From Promethearchaeota archaeon (GTDB lineage Archaea; Asgardarchaeota; Lokiarchaeia; Sigyniarchaeales; SOKP01): a stretch of DNA of 64,000 nucleotides. The position numbers and the translations under genes were made by a program. Location: the NCBI GenBank assembly GCA_016840165.1, contig JAEOSU010000080.1, positions 1-64,000 of the forward strand, in the 5' to 3' direction. Shown piece after piece: positions 5,466 to 23,227 of the stretch (positions within the stretch are counted from its first letter, which is position 1; every line of letters starts with the position of its first letter). Under the pieces are notes generated by a model. It ran no database searches and had not been told where the DNA came from. It saw nothing but the letters and a program-made list of their open reading frames with translations.

Positions 5466-5570
5466 CTTTTCAGTAACACCTTTAATATTTAGGATTATAT
5501 TATGTAGACTTAAAGTTACAAAAATAAGGTATTTTTAATATTTTTAGTTTATATTATAAAACCGATTAAA

Positions 5571-5671
5571 CGCAGTTGAGGGGATTTGAACCCCTGAGTG
5601 CTTACGCACACTGGCTTTATGGGTAAATAACCACTCCAAGCCAGCGCCGTACCAGGCTAGGCAACAACTGC
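5571..5671 (-). tRNA. tRNA-Ser(GGA) with a 17-nt canonical 37/38 intron (5617-5633)
   Basis: Acceptor GCAGTTG/CAACTGC, discriminator G, anticodon arm CTGGC-TT-GGA-G|A-GCCAG, long variable arm, T arm AGGGG-TTCAAAT-CCCCT. Confidence 0.93.
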
Positions 5672-5715
5672 AAATATAAATAAAAATATTTTAAAAAAAT
5701 ATTGTGGGAAATTGA

Positions 5716-14930: not shown

Positions 14931-16307
14931 TCATTTTTTGCGTATTTGAGAATAAGCTTTTTCAAGACGCTCAATTGCTAATAGTATATCTTTAGATTGA
15001 GCTCCAATTGCCGCATTCATTACAATATAGGGTTGACTATAATCTTCACAGCAGGTACCAAATGCTTTCTCTCTTGAATTATATACTCGTGGCCCAGTAA
15101 CTCTCAAATTATACAGAGCACCTCCTAATGCAGTTAATTGTTCTTTTTTTAAATTATTTAATGACATCGCTACTGCTACCGGATTAAATATTTTTAGGAT
15201 CCTTTCATCAAGTTTTTGTGCAAGAGTTTGGAGTTTCTCTTCAAGTAATTTACGATTTTGTTGCTGCTCTAACAACATTCTTTCATAGCCTTTAACTCCT
15301 AAAGATAACATAGAGATGAGAAAATTCACTATAGGTGTTGCAGAAGCTCTGCCAGCGTATGCTTGACTTATTTGTGTAATAATTTCTTCCCTTGGTGAGG
15401 CAATTACCGCTCCCCCTATTGGAGTAAGTATGTTTTTATCAGTTGATTGAATTACAGCATCTACACGGCCAGCATCTATACCTGCACGTATCAATTTCAT
15501 CCATTCTGGACTTTGAACACCATATGCGTTAATTACAATATGGACCAAATTCTTATCTTTTGCAAATTTACTTATCTCTTTAATATCATCATGCTCTCGA
15601 GGTGGGAAAAAACTTGTGACGGACAGCACAGCAAAACAATCATCATCATAATTTTTTATAATATCCTCAATTGGAATCCTTACAGCATCATCAAAAATTT
15701 TTCCCTTAATAATTTTAGAGCGAATTCCCATCAAATCTAAAGCTTTCAAGAGTGATTTATGATCTACTTGAGGTACTAAAACTTTCCTTTTTCGCAGAAA
15801 TTTCTCCTCATTCCAATCTGGCTTAAGAGCGCCTAAACATAATGCTAAGGACATCCCAGTACAGAGTGGAATGACTATTGCTTTTTGAATATTGGGCAAA
15901 CCGAACTTTCTAAGAAAATCTCTGGCTAAATAATTAGAAATTTCATACATAATTGACCCACCTGGAGCTTTTGGCTGAGGTGCGGTTAAGAATCCACTTC
16001 TACCCACACCATGACAGAATCCTGAGGAAGTAAGCAGATGCAGTCGAGAAGCAATTCTAGCCTCTCTTTCTCCCACCCTTGATGCTTTATCATCTTTATC
16101 AGTATCCATATTTGAGAGAGTTTGTAAGAAAAAGTTTATTTGTTCCTCACTCCAAGGATCAATAGGCATGCTCTTTTGTTCGAATAAGATTCGCATCGGA
16201 TTAAGAAAGTTATTTAAAACCAAGTTGCCTCGATTAAGCATATTCTGAGGGATGGAAGTGTTTTCAAAATATCTAATAATGTTATCAAAATCAACCAAAA
16301 ATATCAC
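14931..16307 (-). CDS. spcS: O-phosphoseryl-tRNA(Sec) selenium transferase (SepSecS)
   Basis: GEREARI, HGVGRSG, PQPKAPG, CTGMSL, DHKS, NAYGVQS, GRVDAVIQSTDKN (PLP lysine); true start may be the TTG at 16298. Confidence 0.97.
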   Translation of the reverse strand: MIFLVDFDNIIRYFENTSIPQNMLNRGNLVLNNFLNPMRILFEQKSMPIDPWSEEQINFFLQTLSNMDTDKDDKASRVGEREARIASRLHLLTSSGFCHGVGRSGFLTAPQPKAPGGSIMYEISNYLARDFLRKFGLPNIQKAIVIPLCTGMSLALCLGALKPDWNEEKFLRKRKVLVPQVDHKSLLKALDLMGIRSKIIKGKIFDDAVRIPIEDIIKNYDDDCFAVLSVTSFFPPREHDDIKEISKFAKDKNLVHIVINAYGVQSPEWMKLIRAGIDAGRVDAVIQSTDKNILTPIGGAVIASPREEIITQISQAYAGRASATPIVNFLISMLSLGVKGYERMLLEQQQNRKLLEEKLQTLAQKLDERILKIFNPVAVAMSLNNLKKEQLTALGGALYNLRVTGPRVYNSREKAFGTCCEDYSQPYIVMNAAIGAQSKDILLAIERLEKAYSQIRKK

Positions 16308-16329: not shown

Positions 16330-16482
16330 TGGCGGCCCTCGAGGAGAGTTTCGAAAGTTAGGAAAATCCTAGCTATTATCGAACTCCTATCCCTCCGCAG
16401 GATAACTAGGTTTGAAGCCTAGCGTCAGAGACCACTTATCGTAAAAAACCGATGAGGTTTTTAATTCCGACCGTCAAGGGCC
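16330..16482 (-). tRNA. selC: tRNA-Sec(UCA), 9/4 fold, two introns (D arm 16436-16465; T loop 16348-16377), genome-encoded CCA
   Basis: 9-bp acceptor GGCCCTTGA/TCGAGGGCC, G73+CCA, anticodon loop CT-TCA-AA, long variable arm, 4-bp T stem GGAG/CTCC, 7-bp D stem after splicing; both introns have good BHB motifs. Confidence 0.93.
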
Positions 16483-20628: not shown

Positions 20629-21573
20629 TCATTTATTAATAATATCTATGAACCGTTCTATAAAGAAACGCAATTCTTTTTTTACAAAATATAAATCATA
20701 AGGTTGATGAGCTTTTATTATTGAAAGATGATAAGAACTAGAGCTTTCTTTCAATATTATTGTTTTGAATAAGAAATGATGTCCTAGTTTCTGAACGAGA
20801 ATTTGATCATCTTCATTTAAATTTCCCAGATTAAGAAAACAATCATTTAAAGTTAAGAAATACTGAATACTTTCCTGAAGTAAAAATTTAGCAGATTTAT
20901 TTTCAAAATATGATCCCACAATGAGGGAATTATCATCAATAATCATTAATCCATCGCAATTTAACTTTTTAGCAAACTCTTCAATTGATCTTTGAATAAT
21001 TTGCGTTTTAGGGTAAAGTTGTAATAATATTTCCGAAACTGCATTCATTAGTGAATATAAGTTATAAATAGAAGTTTGAAAGAAACGTATTTTATTATTT
21101 TTTGCGATATCTTTTATTTGTTTAGTAAGATTAGTGATTATCTCTTCGACCTCATTTGGTTTACATTTAAGTAGTTCAGGATCACATTTATGAAAGAGAA
21201 TATTAATAGGTGGATTTATTTTTAACCTCTCGAATTGATAGACTACATCTTTAAAATAACTTAAGGATTCAGGTATTCTAGCATGATTAAGGATATCAAT
21301 AACATAAATGGCTACTTCAGTTCCATCAAAATAGAGATTTGGGTTTTTAATGTAAGAGATTCGATATTTCTGTTGCCCTCCTAAGTCCCATTCACTTATA
21401 TCTTTATCAAAAAGTTTAAAAATTCTTCTAGAAATTCCTTTTGTTGGTTCAATGTTAATAATTTGTGAAAATTCTCGTTTAAGTGCGTGGATAATGCTTG
21501 TCTTTCCTGCCATATCGAGACCAGTGAACAAGATTTTATGCATCCCTATTGATTGGTCCTTTAGATATTCCAA
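20629..21573 (-). CDS. Arf/Rag-like small GTPase with C-terminal roadblock/longin-like domain
   Basis: G1 GLDMAGKTS, G2 PT, G3 WDLGGQ, G4 HKCD, G5 TSI; about 125-aa C-terminal alpha/beta domain. Confidence 0.88.
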   Translation of the reverse strand: MEYLKDQSIGMHKILFTGLDMAGKTSIIHALKREFSQIINIEPTKGISRRIFKLFDKDISEWDLGGQQKYRISYIKNPNLYFDGTEVAIYVIDILNHARIPESLSYFKDVVYQFERLKINPPINILFHKCDPELLKCKPNEVEEIITNLTKQIKDIAKNNKIRFFQTSIYNLYSLMNAVSEILLQLYPKTQIIQRSIEEFAKKLNCDGLMIIDDNSLIVGSYFENKSAKFLLQESIQYFLTLNDCFLNLGNLNEDDQILVQKLGHHFLFKTIILKESSSSYHLSIIKAHQPYDLYFVKKELRFFIERFIDIINK

Positions 21574-21772: not shown

Positions 21773-23227
21773 GTGATTGCTATAAGTAAAATAGAGAATA
21801 AAACCTCTGTTCATATTGGTTTATTTGGACATATTGATTCAGGTAAAACGGCTATCGCAGCCCGCTTAAGTGAGATCATATCTACTGCCGGAATAGATGC
21901 CCATCCACAGAGTAAAGAACGTGGTATCACTATAGATTTAGGTTTTACTAGCTTTATCTTAGAAGATTTCTTAATAACTCTAGTTGATGGTCCAGGTCAC
22001 GCAGATCTGATCAAAATAAGCGCCTCATCAATTGAAATTATTGATTGTGCAATAGTTGTGATTGATATAAATAAAGGGGCACAAGTTCAAACGGGCGAGC
22101 ACATAATTATGATTGAGTCACTCAATATCAGAGATATAATAGTGGTATTAAATAAAATAGATCTATTCAGGGGAAATATTGATGATGAAATCAAAAAAAT
22201 AAGAGTTTTTTTTAAGTCTACTTCATTCGGTCCTAATATCCCAATTTATGCTGTTTCTGCCAAAGAAAATAATGGATTCAATGAACTAAAGAAGGGAATT
22301 CTAGATAAGATAAAAGATTTGAAAATTGAAAGAGATTTTAATGATCCAATAATTATACCTATTGATCATCATTTTTCTATCAAAGGCAGAGGAGCTGTTA
22401 TAACCGGTACAATATTGAAGGGTCAAGTAAAATTAAACCAAAAATTAGATATTATTCCAGTTAACATCTCGGGTCGAGTTAAATCGATTCAAATTTTTCA
22501 CTACAATGTAGAATCTGCAAAAGCAGGTGATAGAGTAGGATTAAACTTAAAAGGAATAGAGGTTAAGAAAATATACCGTGGATGTTATGCTACGAATGAT
22601 ACTAGCCAATTTGATCAGAGCAATATTTTAGAAATTGAGGTAAACTCCAATACACTTTTTAAAAAAGAGATATATTTTGGTACTCAAGTGCATGTTACTT
22701 TGGGAATGTATACAACCGTGGGAAATATATATCCTTATTACGAAATTGATGGGAAAAAAATTCAATTAGACTCAAAAGCGAATAAAAAGAATTTTAGGGC
22801 TTTCTTATGGTTAAATGAAAGTGTTGTAATAAGTAAAGAAAAATCTGTTTTATTATTAAGTAGATTAGACCTCCCACCCACCACTTTACGTATAATAGGT
22901 TCTGCAAATCTTATTACTATTCCAAAGGAGACCCCAACATTGTATAAATTTAAAATCAAAAAAGGAATTATTCAAACTCCCGAGCATAGTCAAGGAGTTA
23001 TATGTAAAGGATTAGCAAAATCTCTTGAGGGAGCAAAAAAAATTATAGGACGGAGACTAGAAAGTCCTTTTACGAAAATCATAAGCCCATTTGGAACAAA
23101 AGGGGCTGTTATCATCGGCGTGGAGAAAGATGCTAAGTTAGATATTAAAAAGGGAGATCCGGTAATTTTAAAAGAAATAAGAAGTTTTAGACTCAAACCC
23201 AAAAAAGATTTATATTTGCAGAATTAA
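21773..23227 (+). CDS. selB: Selenocysteine-specific elongation factor (archaeal SelB / eEFSec type)
   Basis: GHIDSGKT, STAGIDAHPQSKERGITIDLGFTSF, DGPGHADLI, DHHFSIKGRG, short domain IV with FG.KG. Confidence 0.95.
   Translation: MIAISKIENKTSVHIGLFGHIDSGKTAIAARLSEIISTAGIDAHPQSKERGITIDLGFTSFILEDFLITLVDGPGHADLIKISASSIEIIDCAIVVIDINKGAQVQTGEHIIMIESLNIRDIIVVLNKIDLFRGNIDDEIKKIRVFFKSTSFGPNIPIYAVSAKENNGFNELKKGILDKIKDLKIERDFNDPIIIPIDHHFSIKGRGAVITGTILKGQVKLNQKLDIIPVNISGRVKSIQIFHYNVESAKAGDRVGLNLKGIEVKKIYRGCYATNDTSQFDQSNILEIEVNSNTLFKKEIYFGTQVHVTLGMYTTVGNIYPYYEIDGKKIQLDSKANKKNFRAFLWLNESVVISKEKSVLLLSRLDLPPTTLRIIGSANLITIPKETPTLYKFKIKKGIIQTPEHSQGVICKGLAKSLEGAKKIIGRRLESPFTKIISPFGTKGAVIIGVEKDAKLDIKKGDPVILKEIRSFRLKPKKDLYLQN

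Follow-up and report, generated by a model that had tools for sequence, protein, structure and literature searches.

Interrupted tRNA-Sec genes in Archaea

The closest described counterpart of the gene reported here is the tRNA-Sec gene of Lokiarchaeota, which contains a single 31-nt intron in its T loop (Mariotti et al. 2016, PMC4989117; Santesmasses et al. 2017, PMC5330540) and is presented in a 2022 review as the only intron-bearing archaeal tRNA-Sec (PMC9499178). Further cases are found in the supplement of Valentin-Alvarado et al. (2024, PMC11291895, Supplementary Data 4): the SeC genes of Atabeyarchaeia-1 and -2 are listed with three introns after curation and none by tRNAscan-SE, and that of Freyarchaeia with one intron. 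These Atabeyarchaeia and Freyarchaeia genes were missed by tRNAscan-SE and 'identified via Secmarker' with low scores of 46.6, 36.3 and 35.5, the first two being those of the three-intron Atabeyarchaeia genes. The table gives intron counts only, without positions or discussion. Apart from this source, the searchable literature describes the single T-loop intron only (PMC4989117, PMC5330540, PMC9499178). Sun et al. (2021) note that some Lokiarchaeia tRNAsec have 'unusual insertions and deletions', and introns go unmentioned in a 2024 Asgard selenoproteome paper and in a 2026 review.

In heavily interrupted Asgard tRNA genes, the introns are short (median 22-23 nt) and lie at bulge-helix-bulge (BHB) motifs, and those in the D arm are both common and systematically missed by software (bioRxiv 10.64898/2026.10.13.758758). 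The tRNAs of Thermoproteales/Crenarchaeota resemble the case described below in their non-canonical or multiple BHB introns, in their relaxed HBh' motifs at D-arm and T-loop sites and in an (alpha-beta)2 EndA with a specific loop (PMC5829648; PMC4090602), but they belong to another phylum, and we found no report in the literature of such introns in their tRNA-Sec.

A selC gene with two introns

We analysed a window of 64,000 nt (positions 1 to 64,000 of contig JAEOSU010000080.1, GenBank assembly GCA_016840165.1) from an Asgard archaeon of the Promethearchaeota/Lokiarchaeia type. We estimate at about 93% the probability that positions 16330-16482, on the minus strand, are the sole functional selC of this organism (anticodon UCA), split by two protein-spliced BHB introns. 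The two-intron gene is genuine and well supported, and the same layout is common in related genomes. It shares with the Lokiarchaeota tRNA-Sec, from the same phylum, the UCA anticodon, G73, the 9/4 fold, a 7-bp D stem, a 4-nt D loop, a long variable arm, a T-loop intron of about 30 nt and a SelB gene a few kb away on the opposite strand (PMC4989117). The source genome differs in adding an intron in the D stem and in having SepSecS directly adjacent. The features of the locus are as follows.

16330..16482, minus strand: selC precursor, 153 nt, with three exons, two introns and encoded CCA; unique in the genome according to a BLAST search with its exons
16466..16482, minus strand: exon 1, 17 nt; acceptor 5' strand GGCCCTTGA, then CG, then GTCGGA (first 6 nt of the D-stem 5' strand)
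16436..16465, minus strand: intron 1, 30 nt; between nt 6 and 7 of the D-stem 5' strand (mature nt 17/18)
16378..16435, minus strand: exon 2, 58 nt; D-stem G, TGGT, CTCTGAC, anticodon arm (TCA), variable arm, GGAG TTCGAT
16348..16377, minus strand: intron 2, 30 nt; inside the T loop, separating loop nt 6 from nt 7 (Sprinzl 59/60; mature nt 75/76)
16330..16347, minus strand: exon 3, 18 nt; last T-loop nt (T), CTCC, TCGAGGGCC, G73, CCA
14931..16307, minus strand (same strand as selC): SepSecS, GTG start 23 nt past the CCA (Pfam PF05889, E 7.8e-111)
21773..23227, plus strand: SelB/EFsec, about 5.3 kb from selC and on the opposite strand (TIGR00475, 246 bits, above cut-off)

Excision of both introns leaves a mature tRNA of 93 nt. 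Its acceptor stem has 9 bp (GGCCCTTGA/TCGAGGGCC) and its T stem 4 bp (GGAG/CTCC), which together give the 9/4 fold and a 13-bp domain. The TCA anticodon lies in a 7-nt loop closed by a 6-bp stem, as drawn by ARAGORN for the spliced 93-mer; the variable arm counts 17 nt; exon 2 ends with the T-stem 5' strand and T-loop nt 1-6; and the 3' end is G73 followed by the encoded CCA. The D stem GTCGGAG/CTCTGAC (7 bp, one G.U) with its 4-nt loop TGGT is formed only once intron 1 is removed. A 7-bp D stem, a 4-nt loop and a long variable arm are the archaeal tRNA-Sec criteria of Fig. 2 in PMC4989117. A first-pass annotation of this DNA had proposed the 9/4 fold, the UCA anticodon, the long variable arm and the encoded CCA, all of which hold on the minus strand; it had also proposed the two introns, whose exact coordinates and helices we confirm, together with the 7-bp D stem and 4-nt loop restored by excision of the D-arm insert. 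Its description of the long D stem as an established recognition element for PSTK and SepSecS fares less well: recognition in archaea is determined chiefly by the 13-bp acceptor/T domain, with only a minor part for binding of the D arm by the C-terminal domain of PSTK (PMC9499178).

When ARAGORN was run on in-silico products, a tRNA-SeC(tca) of 93 nt was called only with both inserts removed; neither the precursor nor either singly spliced form produced a call. The spliced 93-mer is identical, letter for letter, to the uninterrupted selC of a same-genus genome (G007, locus L015), in which exon 1 joins exon 2 without a gap. Exon 2 is 90-100% identical to its counterparts in genus relatives. Against the Rfam tRNA-Sec model RF01852, the L015 gene scores 57.7 bits (E 8.4e-10, cut-off 47), so that the spliced sequence passes the covariance-model check that had been suggested for it; the interrupted selC genes of two other relatives go unreported at the threshold that L015 passes. 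We also built a covariance model, R1, from 29 distinct uninterrupted Asgard selC genes. It matches the window end to end, from 16333 to 16482 (model positions 1-90), with 74.7 bits and an E-value of 1.8e-12. BLAST of the exons revealed no second selC in this 99.7%-complete assembly.

Bulge-helix-bulge structure of the introns

The cut rule was taken from the anticodon-loop introns of sister genes, which display an outer stem, a 4-bp helix CTTC/GAAG and two 3-nt bulges, with cleavage after bulge nt 2 in 11 of 11 cases (CTTC AA|N ... GAAG AN|A, the bar marking the cut). The same rule applies to both introns of the window. Our search for BHB registers was limited to product-preserving ones, that is, those reproducing the tRNA; an unconstrained search for the best BHB register was discarded because the junctions it chose failed to reproduce it. 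In both introns all four central-helix pairs are formed, and cutting after bulge nt 2 yields exactly the orthologue sequence. Intron 2 presents a strict BHB, GGAG [TTCG] AT|A ... [CGAA] AC|T CTCC, in which the T stem serves as the outer helix (outer helix 4-5 bp, inner helix at least 3 bp), and its site is that of the T-loop insert in 43 distinct relatives. Intron 1, with [GTCG] GA|A ... [CGAT] AA|G and an inner hairpin paired at 8 of 9 positions, has an outer exon helix of just 2 bp (G.U and C-G) and therefore belongs to the relaxed HBh' type; its cleavage is predicted to depend on a broad-specificity EndA.

In 300,000 random 30-nt spans of the same genome, the D-type geometry arises at a rate of about 1e-5 and the T-type at about 8e-5, and a chance origin of both junction motifs is excluded. 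The D-arm inserts of public relatives have a complete central helix (4/4 pairs) in 36 of 42 distinct cases; its third pair is C-G in 29 distinct genes, U.G in three and U-A in three. Over the 12 distinct sequences of the 30-nt class, 97.8% of the cells in the intron 1 fold are paired, versus 32-45% with the partners slid by one to three columns, and seven of the 15 pairs have changed on both sides; none of 500 shuffles reached these values. The D-stem BHB is kept by compensatory change. The predicted minimum-energy fold of the whole precursor differs from the BHB conformer, which lies 5 kcal/mol above it (-48.2 vs -53.4).

BLAST of both introns against the whole genome returned only chance matches of 13-15 nt, and hence no sign of further copies of the introns or of copying between tRNA genes. 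Inspection by eye found no C/D-box motifs in the 30-nt introns, which are also too short for such guide RNAs.

Intron length varies little among the loci compared (L009, L056-L168): T-loop introns measure 30 nt in 35 of 43 distinct genes, and D-stem introns 30, 33 or 34 nt in 34 of 42. Three loci (L122, L123 and L116) have their D-stem intron at a second site, 1 nt further upstream (it follows mature nt 16), where the central helix is shifted and reads GGTT/AACC or GGTT/GACT; the site reflects either a separate insertion or a junction that has slid.

Splicing and Sec machinery

The genome encodes two EndA paralogues. The nearest match to EndA alpha (G000 C14, L039, 1168-1770; 201 aa) is the catalytic subunit of the heterotetramer from Aeropyrum pernix (3p1z_B, E 3e-38). 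Its gapless alignment with 3p1z_B covers the segment that we take to be the Crenarchaea-specific loop. The second paralogue (C4, L040, 1210-1824; 205 aa) has a Ser at the position of the catalytic His of Methanocaldococcus EndA and so looks like a structural beta subunit. Asgard archaea have an (alpha-beta)2 EndA with the L1 loop, and non-canonical introns are cut only by such broad-specificity (alpha-beta)2 enzymes (PMC5829648). The RtcB ligase is encoded as well (556 bits).

As to Sec synthesis and decoding, the SepSecS gene next to selC is shared by most relatives, a SepSecS of at least 380 aa being present on the selC locus in 89 of 107, and PSTK is encoded on another contig. The selD gene (G000 C40, L051, about 1501-2343) contains a single in-frame TGA within 'HG*SCKLGP'. 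This TGA occupies the Sec/Cys position of the SelD family motif, so that selenophosphate synthetase is itself a selenoprotein here. With the full Sec machinery and a TGA-containing selD, the organism needs a working tRNA-Sec, for which 16330-16482 is the only candidate.

From these elements the following pathway may be proposed. A 153-nt precursor would be transcribed, in which each intron would pair with the neighbouring exon into a 4-bp helix flanked by two 3-nt bulges. The heteromeric (alpha-beta)2 EndA would cut past nt 2 of each bulge and RtcB would ligate the three exons. The resulting 93-nt tRNA of 9/4 fold, its CCA already encoded, would be serylated, phosphorylated by PSTK and converted by the adjacent SepSecS, after which SelB would deliver Sec-tRNA to UGA codons such as that in selD. 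That both introns are actually excised from the precursor is what the gene's sequence and that of its relatives lead us to expect. Splicing should precede any use of the tRNA, since both introns disrupt core stems or loops. The two-intron selC leaves the understanding of Sec biosynthesis unchanged.

A further gene between selC and selB, at 20629-21573 on the minus strand, encodes a small GTPase of the Gtr1/RagA family, a eukaryote-signature protein (Pfam E 1.8e-27).

Distribution of introns among relatives

A DNA search of 40 relatives recovered selC in 22 of 24 same-genus genomes. [quoted passage not shown] A public survey of species-representative genomes, using a pattern derived from the uninterrupted variable-arm/T-arm stretch, returned 113 contigs, nearly all labelled Promethearchaeota or Promethearchaeia. 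Among the 106 complete public selC genes of this type, 50 have no intron, 29 carry D and T introns, 13 a D intron only, 11 anticodon and T introns, and three a T intron only. Three mature tRNA-Sec sequences exist in both intron-bearing and intronless form.

Model R1, searched over 151 genomes of the phylum, matched in 67. One large family has uninterrupted selC genes of 88-89 nt and another has T-loop introns only; one genome contains inserts in the D loop, anticodon loop and T loop, and two complete 2.8-Mb genomes have selC genes of 175-176 nt with inserts in the D loop, variable arm and T loop. The matches in these two complete genomes (196286-196460 and 208757-208932) coincide with the 'SeC UCA' coordinates of PMC11291895 Supplementary Data 4. 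Given the intron counts of that table, multiply interrupted tRNA-Sec genes, D-region intron included, are therefore already on record. The Atabeyarchaeia SeC genes are like ours in being multiply interrupted Asgard tRNA-Sec genes with one insert in the D arm and one in the T loop. They differ in belonging to another class, in having their D-arm insert (40 nt) in the D loop rather than the D stem, and in an extra variable-arm insert, as aligned by R1. The doubly interrupted tRNA-Sec, of which the earlier reader of this sequence professed to know no example, has precedents in these three-intron genes and company in the 29 D + T and 11 anticodon + T genes among the 106. What is new here is the D-stem site among documented tRNA-Sec intron positions, along with the marked presence/absence polymorphism, which we regard as a modest gain.

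The encoded 3' CCA (16330-16332 in the window) is common to essentially all complete relatives of the family (L056-L168), whereas archaeal tRNA-Sec genes are said not to encode CCA (review PMC9499178). The selC of a single-contig 4.4-Mb genome from another family (L032) has no encoded CCA.

Some submitters' labels depart from the Promethearchaeota. A contig labelled 'Chlamydiae bacterium SM23_39' (LJUH01000039.1, L086) contains a Loki-type selC interrupted in the D and T arms, and is probably of archaeal origin, placed in a bacterial MAG by a binning error. Likewise, selC genes near-identical to those of Promethearchaeota MAGs occur on contigs labelled Hodarchaeota, Hermodarchaeota, Thorarchaeota or Odinarchaeota (isolates DZ*, H3B*, TM1M* and QM1B*; loci L063, L078, L082, L096-L098, L100, L108, L116, L119 and L126), for which the phylum labels may be unreliable.

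Intron turnover

To follow intron state through the family, we built a quick maximum-likelihood tree from the SepSecS proteins encoded beside selC at 89 loci. On this midpoint-rooted tree, a single-gene proxy for the species, at least 22 changes of architecture are required (D at least 17, T at least 14, anticodon 2). The nearest relative on the tree has an identical D intron and a different T intron, and the next-nearest has no introns. The D introns are visibly homologous across clades, from which inheritance with repeated precise loss can be inferred; loss thus appears favoured over gain by intron homology, on a tree that is single-gene and midpoint-rooted.

Do the two sites change independently? 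Among 12 independent pairs differing in D state, the T site changed in the same way in about seven, in the opposite way in about none, and was unchanged in about five (median p about 0.016). This suggests that a single event often removes or replaces the D and T introns together. One could go further and see in the Loki-type selC a live case of concerted turnover, with two sites that switch at least 14-17 times while the mature tRNA is unchanged. Such a pattern would point to an active replacement route, e.g. recombination with reverse-transcribed spliced tRNA, or whole-allele exchange between species. We put this forward tentatively and consider it possible but rather doubtful. If true, the selC locus would offer a tractable natural setting in which to study how introns of archaeal tRNAs appear and disappear, a question left open by the 2026 Asgard intron preprint (bioRxiv 10.64898/2026.10.13.758758). 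That preprint also found repeated intron-state changes on a tree; it deals, however, with Freyrarchaeaceae, Jordiarchaeaceae and Atabeyarchaeaceae, describes gains and refers to tRNA-Sec in its methods only, whereas in the Loki-type family studied here intron homology favours repeated, often concerted, loss.

Retained inserts, control point or passengers?

Could the inserts remain in the RNA, either in a decaying pseudogene or as arm expansions persisting in a non-standard RNA? Standard finders do reject the unspliced sequence, as this would predict, but the 7-bp D stem would be lost if it contained a 30-nt hairpin, and the gene is the only selC in a genome whose Sec machinery and TGA-containing selD are intact. 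Its exons match an intronless orthologue of functional appearance at 100% identity, and a covarying BHB lies exactly at the junctions, for which a decaying or retained insert would provide no cause. We find retention scarcely credible.

Assuming that the introns are spliced, are they there for a reason? The first-pass annotation raised the idea that splicing could act as a control point. On such a reading, an intron in the D stem and/or the T loop would be kept because its regulated removal, for instance in answer to selenium supply, gates the formation of Sec-tRNA-Sec. The anatomy lends itself to such a scheme, with both introns disrupting the tRNA core, the 5' strand of the D stem tied up in the BHB helix before cleavage, and selC immediately upstream of SepSecS. 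The junction sequences and the BHB fold are conserved too, but this is no pointer to regulation, because any spliceable intron needs them. Against it, 50 of the 106 relatives are intronless, an identical mature tRNA exists without either intron, and intron state has changed at least 22 times within the family, which indicates that the introns are dispensable. Nor is selC singled out in a genome that is intron-rich overall (13 of the 23 tRNAs reported by ARAGORN), and we saw no regulator or selenium-responsive element. The control-point idea is thus unsupported, and we hold it to be very improbable. The five gene architectures that relatives show around one mature tRNA amount to a natural experiment in which the introns prove dispensable and turn over fast. 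We infer that they are selectively near-neutral passengers rather than regulators, inherited and repeatedly lost, often both at once.

Detection by tRNA finders

On the raw window, neither ARAGORN (default or with -i) nor Rfam at gathering thresholds calls a selC; a permissive Rfam scan gives a misaligned tRNA-Sec match of 20.6 bits, against a cut-off of 47. The prediction that Sec-tRNA finders would overlook such a gene thus proves right in the case of ARAGORN and Rfam. The Secmarker scores published for SeC genes with several introns, 35-47 bits (PMC11291895, Supplementary Data 4), are near the thresholds of Asgard Sec surveys. As surveys of Sec use in Asgard archaea often demand a detected tRNA-Sec, the ARAGORN and Rfam misses together with these borderline Secmarker scores mean that some genomes may be wrongly scored as lacking selC. 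With a covariance model specific to the lineage, such genes are recovered over their full length, as R1 shows here with its 74.7 bits.

The effect may extend to other tRNAs. A tRNA-Ser(gga) at 5570-5672 of the window, on the minus strand, is found in the intron mode of ARAGORN and missed by its default run. Genome-wide, ARAGORN with intron mode reports only 23 tRNAs in this 99.7%-complete genome, 13 of them intron-bearing; the majority of its tRNA genes probably carry several interruptions and escape standard finders.
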